In this document: positions 1 to 27,564 of the stretch, in pieces
How the letters are laid out: each line of letters starts with the position of its first letter
Position numbering within the stretch: the stretch's first letter is position 1
From: an uncultured Planctomycetota bacterium
Lineage (GTDB): Bacteria; Planctomycetota; Planctomycetia; Isosphaerales; Isosphaeraceae
DNA: 64,000 bases
Assembly (NCBI GenBank): GCA_963823665.1
Contig: CAWGMQ010000004.1
Coordinates: forward strand, 64,001 to 128,000
Direction: 5' to 3'
Program-made: the position numbers and the translations under genes
Notes under the pieces: model-generated
The model's database searches: none
Seen by the model: the letters and a program-made list of their open reading frames with translations, nothing else
Told to the model about the DNA's origin: nothing

Positions 1-1
1 G

Positions 2-1477
2 GCCCCACCCGTGGGACTACCCGGCGTGACCGCCCAACCGCCGTCATTGAAGAATGCGCGACGAGCACCTCTCAAGACGTCACGGGCGTGGGTGATTGTC
101 GCGTCCGCCGCCGCAGTTGGCCTGGCAGGGATTCTCGCGTCGGCTCTGTTCCTCATGAAGCACGGCGGGGACCTGAAAGTCGCCAGCGATGAGGGTGCCA
201 GAGCACCGACAAAACCGAACCTCAAGCCCAAGGAAGCGATCGCCGCGATTCCGAAAGCTGCCAGGCCCGGCCCGCAGCCTACGGATCAACCGCCAGAATC
301 GGTGAGTTCACCAATCGCAAGCGCGACTGTCTCCGGCGACCCGCCCGCTACCCGTACGCCGAAAGGTGAGTCCCCAAAGAAAAGGCAAGGAACGCCGTCT
401 GACTTCGTTCTGGTAGGACCGCCCCGAGATCCGACTCCGGGCGATGCCCCCGCCGCGATGGCCCACCCGGAAACCGGCAGCAACGTGAACAAATCGACTC
501 CGTCAATGAAGGCGAACATGGTGCTGGAATTCATTCTCAAGGAGAAAGGAAAGGAGTCGGTCCTCGAGCTGCCGGCATCCGCTCAGGGGCCGGTTGTTGT
601 CAAGAAACTCGATTTGACAACCTCGAAGAAACCCGCAAAGTCATCGGGCGGTTCGCTCCGCGCGACGACCGGCCCATCCGATCAGCCAGTGCTCAACATC
701 ATGGCCACCGTGGACGGCCCGCTGGGCCCTCGCGAGCAGGCGATTGCTCATTTCAAGGCAGACGCTCGGCAAGTCACATTCAACTGGGATAAGGCCGCAA
801 CCGACGCTCTGACAGCAGAAGCAGAAGAATTCCTTCGCATGAGCACTCTTAACATTGTCACCGAACGGAACGAAGTGCTGTACGCACTGCTCGCGCATCG
901 ACCGCGCCCGATCTCGCCGCCGATCGAGATTCCGGGCGACGTTCTGGAGGCCGCCCGCGGCAGGAAGAAGGCGGATTTGACCCTGGATGTTCGCTTGGCC
1001 CGTCTCTCTCGATCCGCAGTTCCGGTACTTACAGAACCGGCTTGTCCTTTTGAAGATGAAAGCTTATCCCAAGGGATCCTCCAGGGAATTACCGCTCGTC
1101 GAGGGCGATTCGCCCGGACAGTGGATCTGTAAGGGGAAAGACGGTTCCGATCGTCATGACCGTGAATATCAAGGAGAGCGATAATAAACTACGGTTCGTT
1201 TTTCCGCAAAATCCTTATCTGCTGGAATCCCGTGTCGCCGAGATCAATCGCGCGCGGTCGAGCCCCTTTAAAGATGGGAACGCCCTCGACCCGAAAGATG
1301 CCGCTCGATCGGACGCGCCGCAACAGCCAAGCCGGCTCGAGGCCGACCTTCGGCTGATCCAGAGCCTGTTCGAGCGCAAGGTATCGCTTCGTGGTCGGGC
1401 TCCGGGTCGACGACAAGGACAAGGTCGTCGAGCTGGTCGGGATCGACGAGTCTGCCCAGGAGAAAACCCCGCAATGA
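2..1477 (+). CDS. 3' part of a large membrane-anchored hypothetical protein (start outside window; frameshifted)
   Basis: Frame is open from the window edge. One TM (WVIVASAAAVGLAGILASALFL), then a Pro/Lys-rich linker and a globular region. Coding-like sequence continues through ORFs 987-1184 and 1156-1491 and probably ends ...VVELVGIDESAQEKTPQ* at 1477. Confidence 0.6.
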
Positions 1478-1494
1478 GCCGGATGATTTGAATC

Positions 1495-4438
1495 ATGGCC
1501 GATCATCATCAGATCGTTGAGCAGATCCGGGCGTTTCTCCAGTCGAGCGACCAGACGAGGAACGATCGCCTCGATGACCTGGCGAAGGCCTACGCGCAGG
1601 TGTGCACCGAGGCGAACGGACGGCTCGGGCGGTGCCAGCGCTTGTTGCAGCAGGGACTGCGCTCCGAGGCGATTCAACAAGCGGAAGCCGAGCCGCGGTT
1701 GCTCGATTTCGTGACGGCACTCGATTTCCCCGAGCGCGCCGACTGGGACGAGATCGTCGACATCTACGCGATGGCCGCCCCACCCAAGCTCATGGCCGAC
1801 GCACGGGCTGCACTTGCCGATGCCTACGCAGAAGCCGAACCGCTTCAGAACTTGCTGCGCAACCACCGCCGCCTGGCGACGCAGCGCGCCCCGCTGCGAA
1901 CCCGGATCGGCGTCATGCGAAAGCTCGCCGCCCAGGATCCGCGAAACCCGATCTGGGCCGAAGATCTCCGAGTATTCGAGAAAGCCCGGCTGCGGCAGAT
2001 TCAGATCGAGGCGGCCGAGGCCGTCCGGCTGCATGACGCGGACCATCTTGCCAGGTTGCTTTCGGAGGTCCAGGAACGAAACTGGATCGAGAGCCCGCCA
2101 AGGGCGGTCGTTCAGGGCTTGACGAAGGCCGCTGAGCAGCTACGTGGTGAACAGGCGGCAGCAGCGTTGGCCGATCTCGAGGCCCGCTTCTGCGAATCGC
2201 TGGCCGCTCGTGACGCAGCCCGCGGCCGAACGGCCCGCGACGAGTGGAACGCTTTGATGAAGACGTCCCCGGTCGATTTCACCGATCCGATCTTGGAGCG
2301 AGTCGGCCCCGCGCTCGACATGGCTCGAAGACGAGGACCGGCGAGCCGTCACCGCGCAAGCTTATGAAGTCGACTTGAACGCGCTCTCGAGCGCACTCGA
2401 TGGCACCGCATCCATCTCGGCCGCCGAGCTGGAGCGGCTCGAGCGCGAGCTCTTGCGGCACGGACGCGGCATTCCCGAAAAGATCCAGCGCAGGTACGAC
2501 ACGCGGTTCCGCGCGGCGTCCGCACGCGCGGACGGCGCACACGCCTGATCGTCCTCGCTGCTGCGGTGGCCCTCGGTCAGCGGCGCGCTGGTCCTGACTT
2601 TCTACCTGATCCAGAGCGGTATCCGCTCGAGGAAACGCCCAGAAGGCGGCGGCAATGGTCGCCGCGTTCCTCGAGAAACGGAAATACGAACAGGCCGAAG
2701 GCCTGCTCGCCAGTCTCGAGAAGGCCGATGCCAGCCTTGCTGGAAGACCCGTTGCTCGTCGATGCCCGCAAGCACTGCCGAGCGGCCGAGAGCAGGAGGC
2801 CGAGCGAGCCGAGAAGTTCGAGGACGCCATGGACGAGATCCGAAACGCGTCGCGCGGAGGAAGCGGAGCCGAAGGCCGTGGCCACCGCGAGAGAGCTGGC
2901 TCGCGGCGAGGCAGAGACACGCGCGCTCGAGGAGCTGATCCGCGAGCGCAAAGCCAACCGAAAGAACTGCACGCGAGAAGCGCGAGAGCGGCTACCGCCC
3001 GCGGCTCGAGACGATCGAGCGGTACAGTCAAACGGCTTGCCCAGCGGCTCGGTGCAAACCACGGTTGACTTCGACCGCTTTCAGGAAGAGCTCGACGGCT
3101 CGCGGCGCGAGCTCGACCTGCTCAAGCCCGAGATCGCCACATCGAGCGAGCGACCTGCGCGAGCAGAGCAGCGACGTGCAGAAGCGGCTCGAAGAGTGTA
3201 GAAAACCGCTTCGATCAGCTTCGAGGCCAGTCGCAGCGCAGGGACGAGATCACCGAAGCCGTCGCCTACAACGTCGCCGAGCCGGCCGGTGACCTGAGCC
3301 TCTTCGCAAGCCGCCTTCTTGCCTTCGTCAGGTCCTTTCCCGAGGAGCCGAGCGCGAAAGGCATTCGAGGCCACCCTGAGCGAACGGCCGCTCTGGGATG
3401 CGGTCGGTGCGTGGAACGACCTGGTCAAGAGCTGGAAGAAGCGAGGCGCAGAATTGAATGCGGAAGAAGCCCAGACTCGAGCCAGGGCGTGCGCCGGGTT
3501 CTTGAAAGACAACCCCGCATACCCGACCCTGCTGGCGTGGAAGATTACCGGCGCGTACATGGAATCGATCGCCCGCCGCACCACAGGTGAGGAAAACCCC
3601 CGCACGGCGCTCCAGTCGGTCTTCTCCCAGTCGCTGATCGCGAATCTGTTCATGGTTGTCGCCAACGACGGCACGAATCCGCCCAGGCGATACTACACCC
3701 GCAGTCTACCCAAGGAAAACAAAGGAAAGGTCGAGGTGAAGTACCTCGTGAGACGCGGCAAGGAAGAACGACATGACTTGGGTTGCTCCCAAGGATATCG
3801 TGTCGAAGGATCCGGCGCCGCAGTCACAGCTCGCGTCGGGTGCCAGGAAGCTCCTGTCCGACCCGTCGCTCCATGACCGCTGGGACGATGTCATGAGCGA
3901 CCTAATCAAATCGATCGTGAACGAGCCCAGGATCGATCCGATCTTGCAGGTGAATTTGCTCAAAGTGGTGATCGAATCGGCGGGGGCCGGCAGCGAGCCG
4001 GTTCGCATCGCCCTCGAGGGCGCAAAGAAGGTGCTTGACCAGGCGAAGATCAATCTCGACGTCGACTGGACCGACCCCGATAGCGACGAGCTCGCTAACC
4101 TGCGGAACCAGGCACGCCGAATGATTGCGGCGGCGCGAGAGAAGCTCCCGCACGAAAACCAGCTCAGTCGTACGCGCGATGAACTGGAACGAGCTGTCCT
4201 GCAAATTCACCGGACGGTGGGCTGGCTTGTGCGTGGCGCGGATGGCTTCGTCGTCAAGCACGGTGTGGCTCTTCCCGCCGATGGTGATTTGTGGGTCCTC
4301 GTGGCCTCGGGCCAGAAACGAGGGGAGTGGAAGAAGGTGGGCACGATCACCTCGGGCGGCAAGCAGAACATCGACGCGACGAAACAATCCGCGTTGGCTC
4401 CTGGCCGGCCGGTCTTTATGATCGTTCCATCGTTTTGA
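1495..4438 (+). CDS. Large alpha-helical hypothetical membrane protein (~980 aa when joined; many indels)
   Basis: ORFs 1495-2367, 2566-3201, 2655-3068, 3319-3876 and 3773-4438 overlap in alternating frames with continuous helical protein-like sequence. Hydrophobic stretch near 2545-2610. Confidence 0.65.
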
Positions 4439-4470
4439 AGCGCATTCCCGCTCGAGGAAACGACGGAACC

Positions 4471-5259
4471 ATGTCGATCGCACCCGGCCAGTGGTACGTG
4501 CGGATGCGAGGCCGCGTACTCGGCCCGTTCAGTCCGTCGCAGCTCGCATCCTTGCGCGATCGGGGGCGACTCGCGGAGGACCACGAGCTTTCGCAGGATC
4601 GCCGGAGCTGGATGAAGGCATCCGAGATGCCGGGCGTCTTTGCCCGGCCCGCGGAGTCACATTCACAGCCACAGCATTCCCGGGCCGTGGAGCTTGAGTG
4701 GCCCGTCTCCTCGTCACCGGGGGAAGTGCCGGCCCCGGCTCAGCTCTCGCCTGCCGCCGCGGTCGAAACGCAGTGGTTCGTCGCCCGCGGCAGCTCGCAT
4801 CAAGGTCCGATGACTCACGCGGACGTTCAGCGGATGATCAATTCCGGCGAGCTCGGAGGAAACTCGCTGGTCTGGAAGCACGGGATGCCGGCATGGCTGC
4901 CCGCCGCGCAGCTTCATGAATTTCGGTTCGAAGCCGTGGCGGCTGCGGGCTCACCCGCGGCCACGGCGGGCGCTTCGTTCCAGGCAGCCGGTGCCAATCC
5001 GTACGGTTATCTTCCGCCCACGAGCAGGATGGCGATCGCCAGCCTGGTGCTCGGGCTGCTGTGGCTTTGCGGCATCGGCAGTCTCCTGGCGACGATTTTC
5101 GGCGCATTGGCCCTCTCCCAGATCTCACGCGCAAACGGGGCGATCTCCGGCAAGGCACTGGCGCTCGCCGGGCTCGTTCTGGGAATCCTCGGGCTGACCT
5201 CTTCCATCGCCGTGGCGATCATCTTCAGCTTGCTCCGCATGTCGGCAACGCACAGTTAG
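4471..5259 (+). CDS. Tandem GYF_2 (DUF4339) domains plus DUF4190-like membrane hairpin
   Basis: Two GYF_2 motifs (WYVRMRGRVLGPFS...W and WFVARGSSHQGPMT...LVWKHGMPAW). C-terminal TSRMAIASLVLGLL...ALALAGLVLGIL. ATG at 4471. Confidence 0.85.
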   Translation: MSIAPGQWYVRMRGRVLGPFSPSQLASLRDRGRLAEDHELSQDRRSWMKASEMPGVFARPAESHSQPQHSRAVELEWPVSSSPGEVPAPAQLSPAAAVETQWFVARGSSHQGPMTHADVQRMINSGELGGNSLVWKHGMPAWLPAAQLHEFRFEAVAAAGSPAATAGASFQAAGANPYGYLPPTSRMAIASLVLGLLWLCGIGSLLATIFGALALSQISRANGAISGKALALAGLVLGILGLTSSIAVAIIFSLLRMSATHS

Positions 5260-10253: not shown

Positions 10254-12431
10254 ATGAGTCGACTGAAGTGGTGCAGCCTGACCACCGCGGCCTTGCTCTT
10301 CTGGCTTGCGTCGTCGACGGCCGCGCTCGCTCAGAATCAATCCGCGACTCGAAACGCAGGTCTTGCAAAGCTCCAGCAAGAGCTGACTACCCTCAAGCTC
10401 GAGATCCTCAAGGCCGAGTCCCTTGCCGAGGAGCTCAAGGATGAAGAACGCGTGCTCTCGACCGAACAGCAGGGGGCCGAATCAAGCGATACGCGATTCT
10501 TCCGCGCGCCCGAGAAAGTCTGGATGAAAGCGTTCCCCGGGAATTACGCGAAGGAAGGAGACTCCGACCGCGTGCTCGAAGAACTCGCGAGGACCCACAG
10601 AGACGTCGACAAAGACCAGAAAGAGGCAACCAGAGCGTGGACCTACGCTTTTGATCGGATGTTCGCCTTGCGTGAGAAACAAGCGGAAACCGAACGGATC
10701 ATCGGCTGGAAAATGGGCTCCAAGCCGGTCGAAGGAGCCGTGTCGCCGGGAATGATCGGCCTGGGCGCTCTGGCGGCGCTAGGGGGTCTGGTGCTTCTCT
10801 GTCACGAGAACCGCGGTCGCCTGAGGTGGCGGTTGCGGGCGCTGGGCAGCCGGCCCAGCATGATCACCGCTGCCATCGCTCTGCCCCTGGCGGCCGCCTG
10901 CGCCGGATGGGCGGGCCCGGGCGACGACGACGACACCCCGGCCACGCGCACGGTTAGTTCCGCTCTGGGCACCGCAGCGCTCGTCAAGGAGCTAGAGGGC
11001 GAGCGCGATGCGCTGAAGCAGCAGCTCGAAGAAAAGCAGCAAGCCAACGATGCCGCACGCGAACGGCTCGAGGACCGGCTCAGGGACGTGCGGCACGCGC
11101 GGGCGGCTTATTCGCTCAAGCCCGAAGAAGCACAGAAGAAGATTGTCGACCAGGCCGAGCAGTTCGAGGAGAAGGTCCAGAGAGCTTATCGTGATCTTCG
11201 CGTGGCGGCTCGCATGACCGCGCGAGCAATCGCCGAGGCTGAGGGCATCGAAAAGAAGCTCGAGCGAGATCAATCGGACCTCGAAGCGTTTGTCGTGGGA
11301 AGCAGGGGCACCGCCAGCAAGCTGGGGCTCCTCCGAATCGGCACCTCGATCCTCTTCGTCCTGGCGGCCGTCGTTCCGTTCTCGCTGGTACGCCGCCGCC
11401 GCCGCCGCGAGCGGCTCGAGCAGAGTAGGAAGTGTCCCCGTTGTCTCAACAAGGACACGCTCGACTTCGTTGCCCCGTCCTCTGATCACGAGTTTGACGA
11501 AGGGCAGACGATGTTCCGCTTGAAGGTGTGTAACGCCTGCGACTACGAGATTCGCGAAAACTACATCCACGAGAACCGGCTCTGTTTCCCCACGGTCGGC
11601 ATCAGGAGCAGCGGCAAGACGCACTGGCTGCTCATGCTTTACGACCAGATCAAGAACTCGAACATCCCGGTCGCCTCGGCGATCAGGAAGATTCCTTCCC
11701 GAGAGGACAAGCAATTCGACGAGATGGTGCAGCGCTTGCTCTACGCGGGTGGAGGCCTCGCTCCTACCGTCTACGGCTTGCCCAACCCGCTCACGTTTCA
11801 CGTGCATGACGCCGACCGGGCCGGCGCCAACAAGTCGATGGTCAATCTCTTCGACTACTCCGGCGAAATGCGGAACTTCGACATCGACACGAACGAATTC
11901 CGCCGCCGCGCCCTCTTGTGCGAGGGATTCACGCTCTTTCTCGACCCGACCCAGGCCTCCGAGGGCTCAGCCGGGCTGATCGCCTCGCAGATCGACTGCC
12001 TGTCGAAATTTGCCGAGGAGATGCACGCGATCCGGAGCCTGTCCGCGGACGCGCCGATCGATCTGCCGATCGCAATCTGCGTTTCCAAGATCGACCTCTT
12101 GACCACCAGAAGCTCAATGAGCACCCAGGCCATCCCGCTCGTCACGGCTCTCAGGCAGTCGATGACCAGGCGGGTTGATCTCGCGCTCATTCAGGAGCGG
12201 TCGCAGCTCTGTGCGGCGGCGATCAGTCAGTTGTTTCCCGGCTGGAACATCGAGCGCTCCCTGCGCGAGAACTTTGGCGGCCGGTACATGTTCTTCCCGA
12301 TGAGCGCGGTCGGGCTCGAGGAGGCCGAGCTCGGCATCGAAGACCTCCGCAAGCGAACGATTGCCCCGTGCGGAATGATCGAGCCCTTGCTCTGGCTGCT
12401 GCACATGCACGGTTACTGTGTATTCCACTAG
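10254..12431 (+). CDS. Membrane-anchored TRAFAC-class GTPase (DO-GTPase2-like) with coiled coils and Zn ribbon
   Basis: Signal peptide, two coiled coils, three TMs, CPRC...CNAC. G1 GIRSSGKT (11598-11621), G3 LFDYSGE, LFLDPTQ, G4 VSKID, G5 PMSAVG. Confidence 0.85.
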   Translation: MSRLKWCSLTTAALLFWLASSTAALAQNQSATRNAGLAKLQQELTTLKLEILKAESLAEELKDEERVLSTEQQGAESSDTRFFRAPEKVWMKAFPGNYAKEGDSDRVLEELARTHRDVDKDQKEATRAWTYAFDRMFALREKQAETERIIGWKMGSKPVEGAVSPGMIGLGALAALGGLVLLCHENRGRLRWRLRALGSRPSMITAAIALPLAAACAGWAGPGDDDDTPATRTVSSALGTAALVKELEGERDALKQQLEEKQQANDAARERLEDRLRDVRHARAAYSLKPEEAQKKIVDQAEQFEEKVQRAYRDLRVAARMTARAIAEAEGIEKKLERDQSDLEAFVVGSRGTASKLGLLRIGTSILFVLAAVVPFSLVRRRRRRERLEQSRKCPRCLNKDTLDFVAPSSDHEFDEGQTMFRLKVCNACDYEIRENYIHENRLCFPTVGIRSSGKTHWLLMLYDQIKNSNIPVASAIRKIPSREDKQFDEMVQRLLYAGGGLAPTVYGLPNPLTFHVHDADRAGANKSMVNLFDYSGEMRNFDIDTNEFRRRALLCEGFTLFLDPTQASEGSAGLIASQIDCLSKFAEEMHAIRSLSADAPIDLPIAICVSKIDLLTTRSSMSTQAIPLVTALRQSMTRRVDLALIQERSQLCAAAISQLFPGWNIERSLRENFGGRYMFFPMSAVGLEEAELGIEDLRKRTIAPCGMIEPLLWLLHMHGYCVFH

Positions 12432-12464: not shown

Positions 12465-15281
12465 ATGGGTTGGCCGAGCCCCGGCGATTACAACGGTGCC
12501 ATCCAGACCCCTCAGGCCGCCTTCCGCGACCCGAAGCTCAAGGATTGCGCCGTTGAATTGAAGCCGAGCAAGAGCATGCCGCTGCCCTGGGCGCGCACCG
12601 GCGCCAATGCGATCGTGTACCGGCTCTACAACGGATCGGGCTCGACAGCCGTGCGGGTCTTCCTGAACGCGCCCAAGTCCGAGCGCCAGGCGCGGTACGA
12701 GATGGTCGGGGCATACCTCCACCAGATGAAGCCCCGGTGCACGGTCGATTTTCACTACGACCCCGAGGGAATCCTGGTCGGACAGTGGCTCCCGATCCTG
12801 ACCATGGAGTGGGTTGAAGGCAAGACGCTCGGCTCATGGTTCCGCGACGCGGTGGAGCGGCAGGATTCGCCCGGCATCAAGCGGATGGCGCACGAGTGGA
12901 TCAAGCTCATGGGCGAGCTGCGGTCGCACCAGATCGCGCATTGCGACCTCCAGCACGGCAACGTGATGGTCGTGGGCGACCGGCTGATGCTGGTCGATTA
13001 CGACGGAATGTACGTGCCCGCGATGGGCCAAGGTGAAGAAAAAAACCGCGTTGCCTGGGAAAACGGCCTGCCTGCATACCAGCACCCGAGCCGGCCGGGC
13101 CAGCTCCTTTCCCCGGCGATCGACCACTTCTCGGCCTGGCTCATCCTGATCTCGCTGCGGGCCGTGGCCGACGACCTCTCACTCTGGCATCGCACGATCG
13201 GCTGCACCGAGGAGGAAAGCCTGCTCTTCACCGAGAGAGACTTGAAACAGCCCGACCGCTCCGCGTTGTGGCCCGAGCTGATCAACCATGCCAGAGACAG
13301 GAAAGTTCGCGAGTGGACGGCCGCGTTGCGGCGCTCGCTCGATCGTCCGTTCGAGGAGATTCCGCCGTTCTACCTCGACATTTTTGACCCGGTGCGCGAG
13401 GTGATCAAGGCGGGCGACTGGCGGCAAATCCATGCGCTGGCCTCGAGCCAGCGGTTTGCCAATGAGACGTTTCCGGCCGACGTCGCCCCCAAGGTGAACG
13501 AGGCGATCACGCGGGTCGACTGTGCCCAGCTCTTTGAAGAAAGCCTGCAGAGCGGCAACCTGAAAGCAATCGCCAAGGCTTACCGGCCCGACTTGCTCGA
13601 CGATTGGCTCGACCCGGCGACGGTGGCCAGGGGAAAGCAAGCCAGGGCCGCAGCCGGCCTCATCGACGAGCTCGCCCGCGCCGAGCAAAAAGACCCGGCC
13701 GGCCGGGCGCTGGTTGCTCTTTGGACCGCCCGCGGCAGCGAGCTCCAGGGCATTCCCGAGGCCGACGCGGTCAGGAAAAAAGTCGATCTGTGGAAGAAGC
13801 GAATTGCCGCCGCCGAAAAAGTCGATCAGGTCGTGCGCACAGCCGGGCGGGAGAAGGATATCTTCGAGTCCTGGCAGGCGCTCGACAAGCTGGGGGGCCA
13901 CCCCGATGCCGAGCCACACCGCGTCCGGGCCGAACAGGCTGCGAAATGCCTCAAGGCCCTCGAGGCGTTCGCCGCGCTGCCGCTGACCGAAGATGAGGCT
14001 GCCGACCGCACACTCCTCAAGACCTGGGGTGCGAATTCTAAAGTACTCACCGGCTGCAAGGAGGCCGATCCGTTCCTCGCGCGAGCCCGCGCAGCCAAGG
14101 GGCGCGAGCAGCGACTGGTTGATCTCAAGAGCCGGATCGAGCAGGCCGACCACGGCCAGGGAAGTGAGCGAGCGGTGATCGAGGCGGCCGAAGCGCTTCC
14201 GCCCCGATACGGCGCGAGCTTCTCCGAGCGAATCCGCCAGGCGCGCGAGCGCCTCTCCGCCTCCACCGCACTCGATCACGCACTCGCGGGCGCCCATCCC
14301 TCCGACCTGGCCATCGCCGATGCTGCCGAACGCGCCCGCACCGGTGGAACCTGGCCGGTGAATGCCGCAGTCGCCGCCCGCTGCGTGCTGGCGATCAATC
14401 GCCGCGACCTGCTGCGGACGCTGGATGCGATCTCTTCCGCACTACCTCTGGACGAACAAGACGCGCAGTGGGCCGCATTGTGGGACAACTCGCTCCTGGC
14501 CGACTGCGGCGATGCCCGTGAGCATCGCGCCCGGTATTCAAGTGCCCTCGCGCGCAACGCGGCGTTCGCCGAGCTGGAGCAGGGCCTTCTCGCCGGCGAT
14601 GCCATCAAGGTGAAGCGCTTCGCGCGCGACCCGATCCTGGCGGAACACCCCGGCCTGGCGCGCCGCAAGCCGGAGATCGACGCCCTGATCGCCAAGAGCG
14701 AGCAGGTCGAGCGGCTGCTGGCCGCCGCGAAATCGGGCCATGTCGATGCGTTTCTCGCCGAAGCTGAGCCTGGATTGCTCGCCGCGCACGCAATCGAGTT
14801 CCGTCCCTACCAATCCCAGATCGCCGCGTGGATCGACAAGCGGCTCGGGCAGGGTGACATCCTTCGCGCGGCTGACCCCATGTTCCTTGCCGACCCCGGG
14901 GGCCATGTCGTGACGGCTCGGTGGGCGTGGCAGCAGCCGCAGCTCGTTCAGCGCTGCCTGGTTGCCACCGACACGCGGCGATTCCTCGAGCGCCCCGAGG
15001 ACGCGACGCGGGGAACTGTCAACCTCGACCCGGACATGCACCGCCGCGCCAAGGGGGGTTCGGCGTTCGCGTTGCCGCCCGGGACCGCGAAATTATATGT
15101 GACCGTCTGGCCGGTGGTTGATCTGGGCTGGGACCGGCGGATCGGCCCGCCGTTCCGAATCGGGCCCTACAATGCCGCCAAAGCCGGCGAGTCCGGCCGC
15201 CCCGGCCCTCAGAAGGGTGCAGGCGAGCAGCGACTGCGGGCCGGTCTGCGCACCTTCCTGGAGCGACTACTTAACTCTTGA
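12465..15281 (+). CDS. TerY-P-type Ser/Thr kinase with helical repeats and a C-terminal beta-sandwich
   Basis: WPSPGDYNGAIQ start, MEWVEG, HCDLQHGN, LVDYDGMYVP, YQHP, DHFSAWLI. No TM seen. Confidence 0.85.
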   Translation: MGWPSPGDYNGAIQTPQAAFRDPKLKDCAVELKPSKSMPLPWARTGANAIVYRLYNGSGSTAVRVFLNAPKSERQARYEMVGAYLHQMKPRCTVDFHYDPEGILVGQWLPILTMEWVEGKTLGSWFRDAVERQDSPGIKRMAHEWIKLMGELRSHQIAHCDLQHGNVMVVGDRLMLVDYDGMYVPAMGQGEEKNRVAWENGLPAYQHPSRPGQLLSPAIDHFSAWLILISLRAVADDLSLWHRTIGCTEEESLLFTERDLKQPDRSALWPELINHARDRKVREWTAALRRSLDRPFEEIPPFYLDIFDPVREVIKAGDWRQIHALASSQRFANETFPADVAPKVNEAITRVDCAQLFEESLQSGNLKAIAKAYRPDLLDDWLDPATVARGKQARAAAGLIDELARAEQKDPAGRALVALWTARGSELQGIPEADAVRKKVDLWKKRIAAAEKVDQVVRTAGREKDIFESWQALDKLGGHPDAEPHRVRAEQAAKCLKALEAFAALPLTEDEAADRTLLKTWGANSKVLTGCKEADPFLARARAAKGREQRLVDLKSRIEQADHGQGSERAVIEAAEALPPRYGASFSERIRQARERLSASTALDHALAGAHPSDLAIADAAERARTGGTWPVNAAVAARCVLAINRRDLLRTLDAISSALPLDEQDAQWAALWDNSLLADCGDAREHRARYSSALARNAAFAELEQGLLAGDAIKVKRFARDPILAEHPGLARRKPEIDALIAKSEQVERLLAAAKSGHVDAFLAEAEPGLLAAHAIEFRPYQSQIAAWIDKRLGQGDILRAADPMFLADPGGHVVTARWAWQQPQLVQRCLVATDTRRFLERPEDATRGTVNLDPDMHRRAKGGSAFALPPGTAKLYVTVWPVVDLGWDRRIGPPFRIGPYNAAKAGESGRPGPQKGAGEQRLRAGLRTFLERLLNS

Positions 15282-15323: not shown

Positions 15324-18300
15324 GTGATGACGACACCCAGCTCAAAAAGCCTCGAACGCACGCCGTCCATCGCCGGGCCGATCGAGCAGCTTTACGTCAT
15401 GCACTGCCTCAAGGAAGACAGCGTTCTGGGGCAAGAGGGCTTCAGCGTGCGCGCCTCGAGCCCCGGCGCAAACGACGCGGCGATCCTGGAATGGGCCCTC
15501 CGGCTCGATTACTACGAGCTGCCGCTGGACATGAAGTCGGGCACGCTTCTGGTTAACCAGGCGCCGCGGCGGCTGGCCCGCGTGCCCGGACCGCCGGGCC
15601 GGGTCGCTCTCGTGCACACAACCTATCTCCCGCAGGACACTGTCGGGCGATCGCACAGCTTTCTCTCGCACATCGCGATTCTTCCCGAGCTGCCAGATCT
15701 CGCCGCAGTGGCCGCGTGGGGTTCAACCGAGTGGCAGACCACGGAGTACCCCCGCGGCGATTCCAAGGTGCTCTCGCCGCTCGATCGCCTGCCGCGCGGC
15801 ACACTGATCGACGAGGCTGCCCTCAAAGGATTCCTCGCGAGCGGAGCAGCGCCGCAGGATCAGAGCCTCGCCCGGTCGATCTACCCGAGCCGCGTCGAGT
15901 CGAATCCCCAGGCGCGGCGGCGCTGGGTGCGGGCCGCGCTGCACGGCTTCCTCAAGGCCGGCGAGCCGAGCTCGCGCAAGGCGAGGCTCTGCATTCTCGC
16001 CGAGCCAGGCGCCGTGGCGCTTCTGATCTACGCAATCGCCCGGCTTTTACCGGAACGCATTGCCGGCGCATTCCCGTTTTCGACGTATGAGCCGCACTAC
16101 ACGTCGTTGCGAGACAACAAGGTGGCTCGCGTGATCGGCAGCTTCGCGCGGAACGGCCTCGATCGAGGTGATCTCGAGAGCCTGAGGCGCCGGGGATATG
16201 TGCTCGACACGCTTCGCAATGACGACGACCCCGATCTCGCCGTCGCGGCTGACTGGCCGCTCGAAGGGATCATCACTCTGGCGGCGGAAGGCAACTGGAA
16301 AGGTGTGGATGAAATTCGCGAGCTGTGGTCGCGAGACCCGCGCATCGCACCCGGCGTTTCTGCGACGGTGCTCGGCGAGGCGCTCAGGGTTCGTCCTCTG
16401 GCCGCCGCGCTGAAAAGCGGCACGCTCGGGCCCGAGGGCCTGCTCGAGCTGCGCCGGAACCATTTCGCAGCAGGGCTGCTCCGCGAGGACGAATTCCGGC
16501 GTCCCACCTGGGAGGCAGTGCGTAAGGTCTGGTTGCAGCCGGTCATCCGGCACGAGTTTGCCGACTTGTTTCGTGAGCACACCGAAGAACTGCTCGCCGA
16601 AGTGACCGGCCTCGTGGAATCCGGACCACCCGGAGCATGGCGCGAGGCCTGGGAGGCACTCAAGCCCGTGATCCCGGCCGAGCGGCGTCTCGACGACTTC
16701 TCGAAGCTGCTGGCGGCGATGGAACACACCGGCGCCGCGCTCCCCGCGGGCGAGCGGGCTAATCTTCTGGTCGACTGGTGTCAGGCCGCGCCGGCAATCG
16801 CAGTGTTTCCAACCGGGCTGCACTGGCTGCTGCATGCCGGCAGCGCCGAGGCCTTCCGCACGCTGCTGGCGTCATCGAAGGTGAGCACACGCCTGGCCGG
16901 CGTCGCAACCTGCCTGGCTCTCTGCGGCGGGGCAGACTGGTCGGCTGAACCCGCTTTTCTCGGCGACCTGCCCGACGACCAGTTCCACGCGTTCGCCACC
17001 GCATTGCCGGGCTTCGAAAACCGCAAGAGCGTCTATGACCGGCTGAAAGCAGCCAGGGGGTCGAGCAAGGTGCTGGTCGACCGGCTGGTCCGGCTTCGCT
17101 CCAGGTTGCCCGAATCGTGCGTGGAGGACGTGCTCTCCGCTCTGAACTGCGACGAGGCGGCGTGGCACGATTACTGGCTCAAAGGCGGGGCGCGAACTTT
17201 GCGGCGATGCTCGCGCACGTCGCGAGCGACTCGGGGCTGGCCCGGCGGATCTGGCAGGGTCTGCTCGGCCGGATGACCCCCGAGAATTTCGCCGACGGCG
17301 AGGCTTCCGGCATCGACGTGTTCGCCGAGATTGCGCGCCGTTATCCAAACTCGCTCTCCCGCGATCAGCAAGAGCGGCTCGAGAGCTGGAATGCGATCAC
17401 GCAGGCGTTCGTGAGCCCGGACACGAAAATGCCGGCGGCCGAGCGGGCCGCGAACCTCGCCTCGGCCTGCCGCGCGGCAAATGTCAAGCGCGAGGACCTG
17501 GCTGCACAGTGGTTTGACACGCACATTCTGACCGCATCGAGCCCGGCAGATTTGAAGAAGAAGTCCGAACAATTTGGACGCGCCCTGCTAGGGTTGTTCG
17601 AGACGGAAGACGCTGCTGCCGCGCAGGCACTCAAGCTGGCGAACGGCGTGGAGAAGCGCGAGCAGCGCCGCAAGTGCACAAGCGCGATGTTCCAGGCGAT
17701 CGTCTCAGGCGAGAACCACGATCGCCTGGCGCTCAAATTCGAGAGCCTGCTAAGGGAGACCGATATCCGCCCCGCGCCCGACGTGGATTTGCTGCAACGA
17801 GGAAAGCCGCGGGGGAGCACAGGCAAGGGAATTGGGATCGGCCCTTTTCGGCTTTCGCCGCAGGGGACGCGAAATCTGCTGACCTTCGTGGGTGGCGCAA
17901 CGTTCGCGCTATTGCTCATGCTGGTGCTGTTTCCCTTGGTGACGCAAGTCGGGAACTGGTTGTGGCCATCAAACGAATTGAACCAGACCGTTCTGGCTCT
18001 CGACGTTGCCAAGAAGGCAGAGCGGGCGCTCTCTGCCCGGATCAAGGAAAAGGATGAGGGTCTTGCAAACATGCAGAACCAGCTCGATTCGGGCAAGGCC
18101 GAAATCCGGCGGCTCGCGGGCGAGCTCAAGTCGGCGAAGGAGCAACATCAGAATCAGCTAGACGCAACAGGATCTGATGCTCGTCCGCAAACAGGCGTCG
18201 ATAACGCCGGAGTCCGCCGGACCCCAGTGTTCGTCGCGGGGACGGTCACGACCATCGACCTGCGGCAAGTCGCCCGCGGGGCCCCGACGAAGAACGGTTC

Positions 18301-19742
18301 GCCAAAGGAAGCGGCGGGCCCGGGAAGGTCGTCACCAACCGGCGGTGACAACATGACTCGCAGCGGCATTGGCGCCGGCACTCCGTCCGAAAACGCAGCA
18401 CTGATTCGGAATCTGCTCGACGTCCTGGTCATTGATCGCCCCATCGCATACCAGCGCGACATCGCTCGGTCTCTCGAGCTCGTGAAACAGGCGGAGCAAA
18501 TGCAGATCGGCGATGCTTACTCTGCTCGCCTCAGGCTGGTGCGACGGCTCCTCACCGGCTTGACGTTCGGAGACTTACCGATCGATCCCGGGGCGGCCAA
18601 GCTGACGACCGATGATTCGCACACGGATCTCGCATTTCTCAGTGGCAATGACGGCCGGTCGGTCCTTGCGACGATCAGGAATCACGTCGTCCCTCTCAAT
18701 CTCTATTTCTTCGAAACGAATGCAGGAGGGTTGTCCTGGAAGGCGAAGGTCCCGACGCTCAAGGAACGCACGCCGAACGTCTTGACCGCGAGCTTGTCCG
18801 GGCGCACGTTCCTCGCGGGCCGGAAAACAGACGACCGATTGGACAATCTTCGTATTTATACAGCCAAAAATCTGTATGAATTAGTATATCAGAAAGACCG
18901 GCTGAGAAGGAACATTATACCTGACGAAGAACGCACGATCTCATTGCAGTCCGAGAACCTCCGCCAAACTGGCCGTCACTGACGTTGATCGCTACGCACT
19001 TGCCGGACCAGCGGGAGTGATGAAGTGGCCTCCAGGTGTGACGGTGGAATCGTCCGGGGGCAATGCTCTCGCGGTTGACTTGAAAGCTTTCAACGACCTG
19101 GTCGAAGGTGAGCCGGTCATTTCGGCGATGACGTTCGACTATACTGGACATATCCTGATCATCGGTTTCCGAAATAGCAAACAACTGCCCGTGTTCGAGC
19201 TAGCGAATGATAAACTGAACCCCGTGGTGCTTCCGAAGTATCCTCACGATGTCCGGGCTTGGGCGCACGGCGTTCACGGAAACCTGGCCGTGGCTACGGA
19301 CCGGGACGTCTTCGTCGGAGAGATCGTCCATACCAGCGACACGGGCACCTTCGAGTCGGTCACACTGACGCCCCCAGTCCCACTGAAATCGAGGAGCTCA
19401 CCGGGCCATCTGACCTGCGTGGCGTTCAGTCCGAAGGGTTCGATTGTCGCGACTGGAGACGAGAACGGCGCGATCGCAATCCGTCCGCTGGATCGATCGA
19501 ACGAGGGAGGCGAGATCCTTCGACTTGGTCACATCGGGCCGATCCAGAAGCTCGCGTTCAGCCCCGACGGTCGCGTGCTCGCGGCGCTCGCCAGCCGTCC
19601 GGACGCAAAGGACGATAGCTCTGCCGACGACAAGAGCAAGGTTCACCCGGGCGTGATCCGCCTTTGGGTCACCGAGGGTTGGGAGCGTACTGATCAGGTG
19701 CGAGGCCAAAGCGGCGCGGCCGTCGCGCCTGATGCAAAATGA
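15324..19742 (+). CDS. GAP1-N2/GAP1-M-like protein with helical region, TM, coiled coil and WD40 propeller (~1470 aa joined)
   Basis: EQLYVMHC...GQEGFSVRASSPG, YLPQDTVGRSHSFLSH, FPFSTYE. Frameshifts near 17190 (G run) and 18960. TM near 17880-17960. WD40 motifs TCVAFSPKG and GHIGPIQKLAFSPDG...IRLW. Confidence 0.75.
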
Positions 19743-19817
19743 CGATTGTGACTCACTGAAATCCGTGTATCTACGTCGCTCCGAGGGCGACGAGCTCATA
19801 GAGGCCTGCTTCCGCAC

Positions 19818-21171
19818 ATGCGAAAAAGCCTCCTCATCCTGTTGTTGTGTGCTCCGCTTCTCTGGATTGCCGGGGCGGAAGGGACGCGGCTTTATAATGT
19901 CTATCGGTGGTCGAGCCCGGAGCTCGAGTCGACCGACGACGACCCGCCTCCCAGGCCGGAGGTCCTCGCCAAGGCCAGGAAGACGGCGGATGCGATCCTC
20001 GAGCTGCCCGACGGCGTGACGTCCGCCGTCGTCAAACTCGAACCGCCGCCGCCGGGTGCCCCTCTTGAGCCTCACGTGGGCAGCGCAGTCCTGAACCACT
20101 CCAAAAAGCGGGCCGAACGCGCCTTCGAGGTTGAGCAAGCCAAGGACGATGGGCTCAAGGTCGAGCAGCAGATCAGACAAATCCTCAAGAAAATGCGCGG
20201 ACAGGACGGCTGGCCGTCGGTGCCGGACAAAGAGAAAGAGCTCGACGGAGTGCTCGAGGAATACGTGGAGAAGGTGCACGACCCCGAGCTGGTGGCTTCG
20301 GCGCACGCCCAGTCGGCCTGGGTTCCTCGAGAAGAGAAGTTTTCGCGGGCCGAACTCGAAGGGCGCTTCAAGGCAATCGACCAGTGGTCGCCGAAGGATG
20401 CCGGCAAGGCGCCACCCTTTGACGATTTCATCGCGAGCTACCGTGGCTACTTGAACGACCACGAGCTGGCCAAGGAAGCGTATGCGGTGAAGCTGACCGG
20501 AGAAGCCAAAGCAAGGCTCGCGCTGGCGCAGCGCGGCGCCCTACTCGTCAGCATCCTCAAAAACTCGGTCGCGCCAGAATCCGACCCGGATCCGATGAAA
20601 CAACGCATCGAAGCGATCGCGGCCATCGCGAAGTTGAACGACGACAATCCCGGTGAACCCGTCCACTCGACGCTCAGGCACATCGTGCAGGTTCTTTGCG
20701 ACGAGTTTCTGAAGCCCGAGCCGCTCGACGAATACGTGAGCCTGACGACGGCGAATTCGCTGGCGCCGGAGAAAGTCAAGCGAACAGATATCCAGGTCAG
20801 CCTGAAGAGCAGCGGCGAGACCGTTTCACTCGGGCCGGACGGGGAATACAAGATCAAGCCGCAAGACGTTGAATCCATCACGCTGGTCTCCAAGATGGTC
20901 GAAGCGCCAGCCCCCTGACGGAGGCGTTCCACCGCTACAGGGAACGGAGTATAGTGAAGCCATCAGGGCATTCAACAGCGTGCGCGAGGGGATCAAGCAA
21001 TGGTCCAGTCAGGAGCTGGATAAGCTACTTGACACCTGCAAGAAGAACGAATCGAAGCTCAAACAAGGAGGCGGTGCCGGGAGCGGAGGGCAAACGCTGA
21101 TCGATCGCATCACGAAACTCCGTGAAATTGTGCACAGCCACCCGAGCCTGTTTGCGTCCGATGTTCCGTGA
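19818..21171 (+). CDS. Exported or membrane-anchored helical hypothetical protein (frameshift in C run near 20915)
   Basis: MRKSLLILLLCAPLLWIAGA leader. ORFs 19818-20918 and 20869-21171 join by removing one C. Confidence 0.7.
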
Positions 21172-21246
21172 CCTCCATCGTCTCGTGAGAATGTCCATTG
21201 TTTCGCCAGTTTCCGTAAATCCGAATCCAAACTCGAGGAGCCCCCG

Positions 21247-22177
21247 ATGCCCAGCGGCAAGTACCAGCAAAGTGCCTCGCGCGCCAATCCGGCGTGCATC
21301 ATCTTCCTGCTCGACCAATCCTACTCGATGAACAACGGGATTGCCGGCAGTCCGCGGCCCAAGATCGACGCGCTGGCGACCGGGATCAACCGGTTCCTCG
21401 CCGATCTCATCACCCTTTGCGAGAAGGGTGAAGAAAAGCCGCGCAACTACTTCGACGTGGGCGTGATCGGCTATACGACCGATCGGATCGACCCACCCAA
21501 CCCCATCATCGGCTCCGTGCTCTCCGGAGCCAACGGAACGCTCGCCGGGCCGAGACCTGGTCTCCGTGAGCGACTTGTTTGACGACCCGCTGGCAATCGA
21601 AGACAAGCAGAAGATGGTCGACGACGGGGCCGGCGGCTTGATCAGCACGACCTTCAAGCTGCCGGTCTGGTATCGCAAGCCGGCCGACGCCCAGATGAGC
21701 GGCACGCCGATGTGTGCGGCGCTCGAATATGTGCGGAATATCGTGGCGCCGTGGTGCGCCAGCCATCCCGGCAGCTTCCCGCCAGTCGTCATTCACTTGA
21801 CCGACGGCGAGCCGACCGACGGCGAGCCCCAGGCGGCTGCCGATGCGCTCAAGGGGCTCTCGACCGACGACGGCGAGCTGCTGCTGTTCAACTGCCACAT
21901 CTCGGAGTCGCAGGCAAGCCCGGTCGTCTTCCCGAACAGCGAGCAAATCCTGCCGGATGAGCTGGCGAAATCACTCTTCCGGATGTCGAGCGAGCTGCCC
22001 GACAAGCTGCGCGGCGTCGCGGAGTCGAAGGGCGTGCTGGTGGGCCTCGGAGCGCGGGGCATGGTCTTCAACGCCGACGGAGCACAGATGCTGCTCCTCA
22101 TCCAGATGGGAACAGTGGGCGCACAGCAGGCAGCGCCCACGGAGTCATCCGCACCGCATTCACCGCTCCACTATTGA
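21247..22177 (+). CDS. TerY-like vWA domain protein (frameshift near 21550)
   Basis: SRANPACIIFLLDQSYSM (MIDAS DxSxS), GTPMCAAL, FPPVVIHLTDGEPTDG, LLFNCHIS, LFRMSSELP. Confidence 0.9.
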
Positions 22178-22224: not shown

Positions 22225-23500
22225 ATGAGCATGCCATTCGAAAACGACGAAGCGAACCGAGCCGGCGATCATCAGCTCCGATCGCTGCTGGTCAACAAGC
22301 TGTCCGCCGCGCGAAGGCTCGGCGACTTCGTTCGTGGTCTGTGGTCGAGCGCAGAAAGCCCCGAAACGCAGCCTGAGGCCGGCCCCGAGATTCCCGCCGG
22401 GAGCCTGCCGCTGCCCGACGTGGCTCTGGCAGCCGGAGCTTGTCGTCGCAGAATCTGAGCCCGAGAGCATTCCCGAGCCCGCAGCAGAACCGGCGCGACC
22501 CGCTCGGTTCGAGCTGCGCGTGCTCTGGGCCCCGAAGGGAGGCAACGACGAGAACGAGTGGGAAGACGGCTACGCCACCAATGCCGGCAACGGCATCGTT
22601 GCGCTCGCCGACGGCGCCGGCGACGGCATTTTCTCAAAACTGTGGGCCGACCTCTTGCTCGAAAGCTTCGTCGCCGAACCCATACCGCTCGAAGACGCGG
22701 CCGCGGTCGAGCCGTGGATTCTGGCGCAGCGGCGGGCGTGGCTCGATGCCATCCGGTACCCGGACCAGCGCTGGTCGATCCAGATGAAGATCGATCGATC
22801 GTGCGGCGCGGCGACGTTCGTCTCCCTCAAGCTCGATCCCGGGAGCGACGCGGGCGACGATCCGGGCCAGGCGATCGGCTGGACCGCCTGGGCCGTGGGC
22901 GATGCCTGCTTGTTCCACATTCGCGGCGGCGGCCTGACCGGGTCGTTCCCGGTCACGGCCTCGAGCGAGTTCGGCACCACGCCTTACCTCTATCAGTCGA
23001 AGCCGATGCGGCCGACGCCCACCGCGGTCGTGACGCGAGGAGAGCTGGGGCCGGACGACCTGATCATCTTTGCCACCGACGCCGTGGCCCAGCGGCTGCT
23101 CTTTGAAGTCGAGTCCGGAGCTCCGCCGGATTGGCGCCGTTTCTGGGACCTCGATCAGGAGACCTGGCGGCAGGAAATCGCGGAGCTCCGGGCACAAAAC
23201 GCAATTGTCAACGACGATTGCACGCTCCTGGTCATTCGCCTGCCGGTCGCGTCGCCGGAAGCTGCGGAACCGTACGACATCGAGCCGGCCCAGGTACCCG
23301 CTGATGCAGCGCCCGAGGAGATAGCCCCGACGGTATTCGACATGGCATGCGTCCGGGAAGTGACCGGCCGCCACGAGCAAGAGTGTGAGCCAACATCCGT
23401 GGCCGAGAGTGAAAGCGAGTTCGACGGCTCGCCCACGGCAATGCGTTCGGATAGCGCAACGTCCGAGCGGCCCTCGTCACGGGACGACGATCATGATTGA
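22225..23500 (+). CDS. PP2C-family protein phosphatase, TerY-P type (frameshift near 22430)
   Basis: PKGG...EWED, ALADGAG, GAATF, AVGDACLF, FATDAVA, NDDCTL. Acidic low-complexity ends. Confidence 0.85.
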
Positions 23501-25934: not shown

Positions 25935-25947
25935 TCGGAGGTTTCCG

Positions 25948-27555
25948 ATGGCGACCGGCGGCCTGGAGGGTATGACCGATGGTGCGCCGCCGGCCTGGTC
26001 TCGTTTCAGGGTCTGGGTGGATGCGAGCGTCGGTGTCACCCTCGTCGTTGTGCTTGGAGTGATCTACGTCGTGGATGCTCGGACGTTCTCTTCGGCGCCA
26101 CCTGCGCTTTCACAATCGGACCACAGGGAGGCGGCGCTCGAGCCCCCCGAGCCGCCCCCGCCGCCTCCACTCGAGGAGCGCGCTGCGTTCGATCCGACCC
26201 CCAGAATCGAGCTTCACACGACGGACGACGGCCGGTTCGGCCTGCTTTGCCTCTCCGGCAACCCCGACGACAGCACCGACGACGGCAAGAGGCTGACGTT
26301 CAGCCCGGACGGGAAGACGAACAACACGCGCGTCATGGTCGACGGCCGGGCGCCCATCTTCGGCGGATCGCAGGGCGAGACCCTCGAGTCGTGGCACGCC
26401 GGTCCCGGCGAATCGACGGTCATGGACTGGTCCTATCGAGATGTACTGGTGCGGCAATCGCTCCGGCTCGTGCCCGGCGAAGTCTCGCACCGCGTCGATA
26501 CCGTGCGCGTGGCATACGAGCTCACGAACAAGGGTTCGAAGACCCGCCAGGTGGGTCTGCGCGTCATGCTGGATACGCTCATCGGGGATAACGACGGTGT
26601 GCCGTTCATCGTGCCCGGCCGCGACGGGATCGTCACCCGAACGCTGGACATGACTGGGGGCGACGTGCCTGACTTCGTGCGCTCGCTCGAGCGGCCGAGC
26701 CTCGCGAGCCCGGGTGTGATCGTTGATCTCAACCTCGTGCCCGAACCGGGCGAGCCCCGGCCCAGCGAGGTTTTGCTTTCTCACTGGCCCGGTGCGGAGG
26801 CGGGATGGTCCTACGCTCGCCCCGCGTCGTTTGTCGACGACACGGCGGTGGCCGTCTATTACGCGCCCCAGGCCCTCGAGCCGGGCCAGACGCGTTCGAT
26901 CGGATTTGGATACGGCCTGGGAACGATATCGAGCACCGGGACCAGAAATGCGCAGTTGAGCCTCACAGCCGGCGGCCCGATCAAGGCCGGTGCAGCGTTC
27001 TGGCTGGTCGCGCTCGTGAACAAGCCCCGGCCGGGCCAGACGGTCACGCTCGTATTGCCGCAGGGGCTGGCACCTCGCCGTCCCGGATCACTCTCGCAAT
27101 CGGTGCAGGGCTCCGGCGCATACACGCAGTTGAGCTGGCTGGTCGAGGTCGCACCGGAAGTTCTCGGAGAGGTAACGGTCGCAGCCTTACTGGAGCCTGG
27201 CGGAATCAGCGAACAGCAATCGCTCAGTGTCGGGCCCGCGGACGCACAGCTATCGCTCGTGCCTCGTGGACCGTTCCGTTCGGGCCGGCCATTCTGGATC
27301 TCGGCGCTCGTGCATAACCCGCATTCCGGTCAGTCGGTAACCGTTACACTTCCCGACGGCTTGACTCTCGCGAAAGGCCACACCCCGTCGAAAAGCACGG
27401 GTGCCGCTGATCCGGCCGGATTTGCCCAGATCAATTGGCTGGTAATTCCCACATCGCGCCAGGGCGGCCGTGTGGAGCTTCAAGCGCAGCTTGTTCCCGA
27501 AGGGGTCGTTGCCCGTGCGACAGTCGAGATCAAGCCCGGTGATTTGACGCATTGA
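25948..27555 (+). CDS. Membrane-anchored beta-rich extracytoplasmic protein with two tandem Ig-like repeats
   Basis: N-terminal TM, Pro linker, GNPDDSTDDGKRL...VGLRVMLDTLIGDNDGVPF domain, two AQLSL...FW..ALV..P..GQ.V...LP.GL...Q..WLV repeats. Confidence 0.75.
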   Translation: MATGGLEGMTDGAPPAWSRFRVWVDASVGVTLVVVLGVIYVVDARTFSSAPPALSQSDHREAALEPPEPPPPPPLEERAAFDPTPRIELHTTDDGRFGLLCLSGNPDDSTDDGKRLTFSPDGKTNNTRVMVDGRAPIFGGSQGETLESWHAGPGESTVMDWSYRDVLVRQSLRLVPGEVSHRVDTVRVAYELTNKGSKTRQVGLRVMLDTLIGDNDGVPFIVPGRDGIVTRTLDMTGGDVPDFVRSLERPSLASPGVIVDLNLVPEPGEPRPSEVLLSHWPGAEAGWSYARPASFVDDTAVAVYYAPQALEPGQTRSIGFGYGLGTISSTGTRNAQLSLTAGGPIKAGAAFWLVALVNKPRPGQTVTLVLPQGLAPRRPGSLSQSVQGSGAYTQLSWLVEVAPEVLGEVTVAALLEPGGISEQQSLSVGPADAQLSLVPRGPFRSGRPFWISALVHNPHSGQSVTVTLPDGLTLAKGHTPSKSTGAADPAGFAQINWLVIPTSRQGGRVELQAQLVPEGVVARATVEIKPGDLTH

Positions 27556-27564
27556 GAGGTGTGT

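Follow-up and report, generated by a model that had tools for sequence, protein, structure and literature searches.

A membrane-embedded DO-GTPase2-type GTPase of Planctomycetota with two predicted extracytoplasmic helical hairpins and a putative internal signal peptide

Why should one bacterial gene join a GTPase to a long membrane half, and what might such a protein do at the cell envelope? The question is raised by an open reading frame (ORF) at positions 10254-12431 (forward strand) of a 64,000-nucleotide stretch, here called the window, of contig CAWGMQ010000004.1 from an uncultured planctomycete of the family Isosphaeraceae. The ORF encodes a membrane-embedded DO-GTPase2-type GTPase of 725 amino acids (P0001). 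Its architecture, intact GTPase motifs and operon, and a clade-specific internal signal motif in the family, are direct observations. The protein is best read, with a probability of roughly 0.55, as a GTPase switch that spans the membrane, serves a predicted conflict system and likely matures into two associated chains.

Hydrophobic peaks ahead of the GTPase are four in number, at residues 7-25, 165-183, 203-221 and 357-375, with Kyte-Doolittle-19 values of 1.47, 1.98, 1.65 and 2.03, respectively. Beyond the fourth no peak exceeds 1.23 on the same scale, and the GTPase has no transmembrane segment (TM) behind it. All parts of the gene lie on the forward strand. N-terminal signal peptide at 10254-10331 (residues 1-26), predicted from hydropathy and from AxA-type ends in homologs to be of signal peptidase I (SPase I) type with cleavage between ALA and Q, is followed by the predicted extracytoplasmic helical hairpin 1 (10332-10733, residues 27-160; alignment and AlphaFold2), in which W129 is nearly invariant, and by TM1 (10740-10802, residues 163-183; hydropathy). 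The cytoplasmic Arg-rich helix at 10803-10853, with invariant R187 and R191, doubles as the n-region of an internal signal. That signal-peptide-like segment, 'TM2' (10854-10913, residues 201-220), has Cys216 at lipobox spacing and a predicted SPase I-like site between A220 and G221. Next come a low-confidence linker and the predicted extracytoplasmic helical hairpin 2 (10914-11318, residues 221-355; AlphaFold2), then TM3 with an Arg-rich stop-transfer (11322-11429, residues 357-392; hydropathy and AlphaFold2), including RRRRRR at 380-385. The zinc ribbon (11433-11540) has four cysteines, C394, C397, C426 and C429, in CxxC pairs at 394 and 426. The TRAFAC GTPase domain (11574-12428) has G1 GIRSSGKT (449-456), G3 DYSGE (534-538), G4 SKID (611-614) and a G5-like SAV (684-686). 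The segment order given by an earlier sequence-only reading, from the hydrophobic segments through RRRRRR and the zinc ribbon to the intact G motifs, was thus located as described. Its three TMs are present as hydrophobic segments; the second resembles an internal signal peptide, which that reading had overlooked.

Topology was assessed on an alignment of 57 full-length homologs selected among 76 matches. The median Lys/Arg count is 6 both for the loop joining TM1 to TM2 and downstream of TM3, versus 2-4 on the other flanks; this charge distribution therefore predicts both helical domains outside and the GTPase inside. The positive-inside argument of the sequence-only reading is borne out by the homologs, and the GTPase is not placed outside, the outcome that was to refute it. 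Together with hydropathy and the AlphaFold2 model, the charges make it highly probable that both helical domains are extracytoplasmic and that zinc ribbon and GTPase are cytoplasmic. The model of the full protein (predicted local distance difference test 82.3, predicted template modelling score, pTM, 0.67) has helical hairpins H32-69/H103-150 and H240-284/H292-391. Its helix 292-391 is unbroken: starting in the periplasm, it crosses the membrane as TM3 and reaches the zinc ribbon. The N-terminal half modelled alone reaches pTM 0.76, consistent with both hairpins packed as a single rigid body. R187 and R191 are the sole invariant residues of this half and occupy the same face of the cytoplasmic helix, where contact with lipid head groups is conceivable, as is a role as an arginine finger reaching the GTPase. 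The zinc ribbon cysteines are invariant in all 57 aligned homologs, and the four-Cys ribbon is present in 139 of the 140 rows used for a GTPase tree.

The sequence-only reading had also seen the leader/coiled-coil/TM unit twice. As a layout this holds; as a duplication it does not. Profile-profile comparison of the halves scores 35.3, reversed half 2 scores 37.1, and the coiled parts alone give 3.8% probability. The reversed control outscores the forward comparison, and common descent of the halves is therefore not separable from composition. Covariation between the halves yielded only clade markers among the top pairs and no informative contacts. For the fold of the N-terminal half neither Foldseek (E<=0.001) nor VIA (Z>=8) gave a match and Atlas gave no usable one, which does not by itself make the fold novel. 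The sequence search of the PDB gave no match with E below 0.76.

The membrane half and the GTPase form a genuine fusion with conserved architecture. In a GTDB scan the best 80 of 113 matches represent 79 loci, every one with Planctomycetota in its title. A single ORF carries the two N-terminal units together with the GTPase in 62 of these; in 3 more the ORF is equally long with one N-terminal unit below threshold, giving 65/79 long ORFs. Ten of the 79 are truncated at contig ends and 4 are frameshifted over overlapping frames, at differing places. A profile of the N-terminal half found 26 longer proteins: 22 with DO-GTPase2, the query and its 3 closest full-length relatives. Six matches of 181-636 amino acids, candidates for stand-alone N-half genes, are apparently partial or frameshifted. 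Within the phylum sample the same profile matched the own genome only among 301, at a low sensitivity of 6 candidates scored per genome. Among 61 related genomes strong matches occur in 9, the own genome counted, and weak coiled-coil matches in 2 more.

The GTPase belongs, with high probability, to the DO-GTPase2/GAP1-N2 conflict systems defined by Kaur et al. 2020 (eLife, PMC7159879). Pfam DO-GTPase2 is matched at E<=0.01 by 53 of the 57 aligned members, the best at 2e-12. The Walker-B Glu is present in 127/140 rows (DYSGE in the query), G1 and G4 in 140/140. By structure comparison the fold is Ras/Rag/YcjX-like, with MglA-like matches too. Among the matches listed the longest structural alignment is with YcjX (PDB 6nz4; Z 14.0, 243 residues, root-mean-square deviation 4.0, 14% identity); the Rag-like 8yl2 (Z 14.8) ties with it. 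Neither dynamin nor atlastin is among the fold matches listed, a statement that does not extend to families outside that list. Membrane-bound DO-GTPases are not new in themselves: the account in PMC7159879 gives N-terminal TMs for about 13% of DO-GTPases. It also gives a paralog type with four N-terminal TMs and one C-terminal TM. The present protein has four N-terminal hydrophobic segments; a C-terminal TM is absent. A second GTPase paralog lies nearby in only 1 of the 79 loci.

'TM2' resembles an internal signal peptide more than it does an ordinary TM, and throughout one clade it resembles a lipoprotein-type signal. Homologs were anchored on the invariant R187, and the forms of 'TM2' were placed on a quick-method tree of the GTPase with 140 rows. 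Three forms follow the tree: Gemmata-type, query clade and Pirellula-type. In the Gemmata-type clade (28 rows; Shimodaira-Hasegawa-like approximate likelihood ratio test 100) 'TM2' ends in Gly-Cys in 28/28; the Cys stands 14-19 uncharged residues after the last Lys/Arg, and in 23 rows this number is exactly 15. The remainder of the N-terminal halves in this clade has a single Gly-Cys in 9,213 residues. The Cys is followed by Ser or Gly in 22/28 and by Asp in 3, then by a Gly/Ser/Pro linker. Gly-Cys is found in 4 of 6 sister rows. Cys216 of the query is preceded by 15 uncharged residues, the spacing of the Gemmata-type majority. Counted by a relaxed pattern of basic n-region, uncharged h-region, small residue, Cys and polar linker, a lipobox is present in 27/28 Gemmata-type, 3/6 sister, 7/24 query-clade (the query included) and 0/82 Pirellula-type rows. 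An SPase I-like score of at least 8 is reached by 11/24 in the query clade and 0/82 in the Pirellula-type; the best query site, between A220 and G221, scores 12.0. At this threshold the TM1 end gives 0/24 and the TM3 end 0/23 in the query clade. The Pirellula-type (82 rows) has a plain, more hydrophobic 'TM2'.

The signal is located about 200 residues into the chain, behind the signal peptide and TM1. For lipoproteins the usual assumption is an N-terminal signal. An internal start codon was looked for and a start with a Shine-Dalgarno-like motif was found in 2 of 22 loci, with no conserved ATG column. The own genome contains the Lgt and LspA families, with Lgt at three loci and two matches to the LspA family (contigs C3, C4, C11). 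A search for BamD/YfiO as a lipobox control gave no clear orthologs. A twin-arginine reading of the Arg-rich loop was rejected, RR being, by eye, not conserved ahead of the h-region. A search of the open-access literature yielded no relevant report of an internal lipobox and nothing relevant on planctomycete lipoboxes. From these motifs, cleavage at the internal signal is slightly favoured for the Gemmata-type clade and tentative, at somewhat less than even odds, for the query protein; that internal lipidation gives a two-chain inner-membrane receptor GTPase in the Gemmata-type clade is an evenly balanced proposition. The simplest role of the lipid would be to replace a TM anchor, because the Pirellula-type holds the same end of hairpin 2 by an uncut TM.

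The gene order recurs between loci: GTPase, kinase, GAP1-N2 (with TM and variable outer part), exported protein, TerY with von Willebrand factor A (vWA) domain, PP2C. A kinase is downstream in 59 of the 64 loci with enough DNA, GAP1-N2 in 47 of the 50 having at least 5 kb downstream, and TerY inside the 10-kb flank in 21 of 42. The TerY-P triad is complete in the window by PADLOC (TerY 3.4e-61, PP2C 2.3e-17, kinase 8e-46), and its GAP1-N2 scores 40.9 bits versus a Pfam cut-off of 24. Kinase of TerY-P type, Ser/Thr-specific (12465-15281, forward, as are all genes that follow; PADLOC STK_OB 8e-46 for the kinase part), with HCDLQHGN and VDYD motifs, a helical middle and a C-terminal domain tentatively called fibronectin type III (FNIII)-like, directly follows the GTPase in the window. 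In the antiphage OB-fold type of the triad the kinase is fused to an OB fold; here the STK_OB model is matched over 1-273 of 562 only. The C-terminal domain, found in 49/51 loci, resembles FNIII (Fn3_SaeA) clusters at 0.90-0.91, a lead only, with no Pfam FNIII match in 14 copies; no relevant literature on SaeA was found. The GAP1-N2/GAP1-M protein (15324-19742; Pfam 2.6e-10) has a TM and a C-terminal WD40 region. Its gene is spread over several frames in the window and is a single 1506-residue ORF in locus L003. The C-terminal region is variable, with WD40 in L003 and L009 and nearly none in Gemmata-type loci.

Exported or membrane-anchored protein of unassigned family (19818-21171) and TerY-like vWA protein (21247-22177; PADLOC TerY 3.8e-16 and 3.4e-61) are both frameshifted. 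Across 15324-22177 the GAP1, exported-protein and TerY genes each show frameshifts relative to intact homologs, from assembly indels or decay. The TerY-P-type PP2C phosphatase (22229-23500; PADLOC PP2C 2.3e-17) is an open frame with its start not fixed. Two ORFs at 23385-27555 have N-terminal hydrophobic segments and no Pfam or PADLOC match; both (23385-25934 and 25948-27555) are large, show apparent internal repeats and are likely exported members of the operon. A multi-TM FHA protein (27559-28788; Pfam FHA 2.4e-10) has relatives directly upstream of the GTPase in other loci.

Locus L067 (1900-14066) encodes a membrane GTPase with internal Gly-Cys, then GrpE, HSP70, HSP70-vWA, a kinase-less protein that shares the middle and C-terminal domains of the kinase, and GAP1-N2. 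HSP70-GrpE is another published GAP1-N2 theme (PMC7159879). The pairing of this GTPase with an HSP70 module therefore marks the GTPase as the constant part and the effectors as swappable. In L053, L060, L034 and L015 neither kinase nor GAP1 lies directly downstream of the GTPase; these are either orphan copies or rearranged operons.

A second GAP1-N2 system lies 5 kb upstream (window 1-5259 and, just before the window, L082:13400-17133). It comprises a heavily frameshifted Zn-ribbon DO-GTPase2, GAP1-N2/GAP1-M (9.7e-28), unassigned ORFs and GYF-GYF-DUF4190, matching the GYF-linked planctomycete type of PMC7159879. A third, short DO-GTPase2 (1.1e-11) adjoins a TPR-like gene on contig C5 of the own genome (L083:7710-8597); GAP1-N2 was not found on that contig.

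Under the preferred reading, Sec would export hairpin 1 by the N-terminal signal and TM1 would stop transfer. The Arg-rich loop and 'TM2' would act as a second signal exporting hairpin 2, TM3 would again stop transfer, and zinc ribbon and GTPase would thereby remain cytoplasmic. Gemmata-type members would be lipidated and cleaved between Gly and Cys by Lgt/LspA; the query protein would be cut by LspA at C216 or by SPase I at A220; Pirellula-type members would remain uncut. The two chains, hairpin 1-TM1-loop and hairpin 2-TM3-zinc ribbon-GTPase, would stay packed, their hairpins forming one periplasmic bundle. A trigger, which may be phage attack, envelope damage or the binding of the co-encoded exported protein or of the GAP1 ectodomain, would shift the continuous helix 292-391 and alter the GTP state. 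The GTPase would in turn license GAP1-N2 together with either the kinase/vWA/PP2C module or, in L067, the HSP70 module. The modelled helix, unbroken from periplasm to zinc ribbon, makes transmembrane signalling plausible; outside-in signalling has an even chance.

Several points weigh against this reading. Against DO-GTPase2 the query reaches 18.1 bits, below the cut-off of 27, and DO-GTPase systems are put forward in PMC7159879 as computational predictions. The SPase I matrix was trained on 82 N-terminal signals of the family and partly mirrors Ala-rich composition. The lipobox count used a Prosite-type pattern relaxed to admit Pro; the strict consensus [LVI][ASTVI][GAS]C (PMC6139136) does not fit, with Pro at -2 in 16/28 Gemmata-type rows and Ala at -3 in the query. 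A lipobox-like Cys is kept by 7/24 of the query clade and the 82 Pirellula-type rows have a plain TM; processing is therefore not essential family-wide. The clades are kin, and the counts are therefore not independent events. The genome-wide control with an xPGC DNA pattern is anecdotal, 2 of its 28 matches being N-terminal-looking signals ending in PGC.

Two more such points fit a scaffold equally well: the layout of the GTPase ectodomain is constant while the GAP1 ectodomain varies, and a paralog (L058:5294-6925) with signal peptide, three TMs and zinc ribbon lacks both hairpins and keeps the TM1-loop-TM2 core (hhalign probability 88%). This paralog may be the published form with four N-terminal TMs. 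As a scaffold, the periplasmic bundle would do no more than anchor the GTPase and assemble an inner-membrane complex with GAP1 and the exported partner. Either the FNIII-like domain or the variable GAP1 ectodomain would do the sensing, and cleavage of the internal signal, a leftover topogenic device, would be neutral. The change of signal type from clade to clade agrees with this, and in Kaur et al. (PMC7159879) it is FNIII domains and the variable modules associated with GAP1 that are assigned the sensing. However, the invariant, tightly spaced Gly-Cys over a divergent clade of 28 rows points to selection on the Cys, and invariant R187/R191 with the unbroken helix into the zinc ribbon suggest mechanical coupling. 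The scaffold is unlikely, though a serious competitor.

The same anatomy might serve a system that responds to envelope or chemical stress (Ter/PSP-like; PSP, phage shock protein) and not to phages. YcjX gives the longest structural match among the matches listed (Z 14.0); a DO-GTPase family protein, which we infer to be YcjX, occurs in PSP-linked operons with a predicted membrane-stress role (bioRxiv 2020.09.24.301986), and TerY-P triads are linked with tellurite resistance (PMC10542128). But patchy presence and swappable effector modules are hallmarks of conflict systems, and a stand-alone antiphage TerY-P variant is reported in PMC10542128, citing Gao et al. 2020. Stress response as the main duty is quite improbable.

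In Escherichia coli the +2 rule governs inner-membrane retention of lipoproteins. The Ser or Gly that mostly follows the Gemmata-type Cys would by this rule predict no inner-membrane retention. In an outer-membrane version, which is very doubtful, the protein would be a natural polyprotein cut and lipidated at the internal lipobox, with the lipid end of its C-terminal chain in the outer membrane; this chain of lipid, helix, inner-membrane TM, zinc ribbon and GTPase would span the periplasm as an envelope gauge whose switching between extended and hairpin forms fires the defence GTPase. Also very unlikely is a membrane tether or fusogen, either a machine like atlastin or dynamin or a lipid-ended C-terminal chain that, in the manner of a u-spanin, links the two membranes while the GTPase governs its extension or collapse. 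Atlastin- and dynamin-like GTPases have a helical stalk on the GTPase side of the membrane. Here the helical domains are predicted across the membrane from the GTPase, unlike those stalks, and tethering of that style found no support. The cleaved chain, with lipid-Cys, about 130 helical residues, TM and GTPase, would have u-spanin topology (PMC6139136), but the Pirellula-type holds the same end in the inner membrane by an uncut TM and the AlphaFold2 model folds hairpin 2 back. A u-spanin gene belongs to a phage lysis cassette and its product has an N-terminal outer-membrane lipoprotein signal; the present gene stands in a GAP1-N2/TerY-P operon, and its signal is internal.

That an assembly error fused the gene of a membrane protein with that of a soluble GTPase, foreseen by the sequence-only reading as a way to fail, has next to no probability: the assembly is indel-prone, but indels split genes rather than join them, and the long ORFs, the differing places of the 4 splits and the full-length hits of the N-half profile all refute it.

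Among known systems, the GAP1-N2-type DO-GTPase systems (PMC7159879) are alike in the TRAFAC GTPase, Walker-B Glu, N-terminal zinc ribbon, downstream GAP1-N2 with TM, FNIII-like partner (as a lead) and the kinase-PP2C-vWA and HSP70-GrpE themes. The present protein differs in being a single GTPase with two extracytoplasmic hairpins of about 130 residues and a putative internal signal peptide/lipobox; it lacks a C-terminal TM and has one zinc ribbon, where members of that family have one or two. The kinase theme, which PMC7159879 describes as restricted to actinobacteria, is the dominant planctomycete context here. The operon shares TerY vWA, PP2C and Ser/Thr kinase with the TerY-P triad; its kinase differs at the C-terminal end, where a helical region precedes an FNIII-like domain, and the triad is joined to a membrane GTPase and GAP1. 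YcjX is not known to carry a fused membrane or periplasmic half. A single gene of Bradyrhizobium encodes the cytochrome b-c1 precursor FbcH, which yields two membrane-bound chains through cleavage at its internal signal peptide; it differs in being of SPase I type, respiratory and free of lipobox and GTPase. A search for FbcH gave no relevant literature. The u-spanin T1 gp11 (PMC6139136) carries a lipid-Cys and, at its opposite end, an inner-membrane TM, as the processed C-terminal chain would; it differs as a phage lysis protein with an N-terminal signal, mainly beta and without a cytoplasmic enzyme, and is an analogy only.

No description was found of the double-hairpin ectodomain, the planctomycete TerY-P context or the switchable internal signal/lipobox; Figure 6 or the source data of PMC7159879 may show the architecture. 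The kinase-PP2C-vWA (TerY-P) theme is extended beyond actinobacteria. A cultured carrier is Gemmata algarum (L036); GAP1-N2 was not found within that locus. Lipobox, SPase I-like site and plain TM alternate at one position of the family, a natural test of whether Lgt/LspA process internal signals and of the way a protein exchanges membrane anchors during evolution. What triggers DO-GTPase systems is a question to which the present member offers an outside-to-inside path, and sensing thereby becomes testable.

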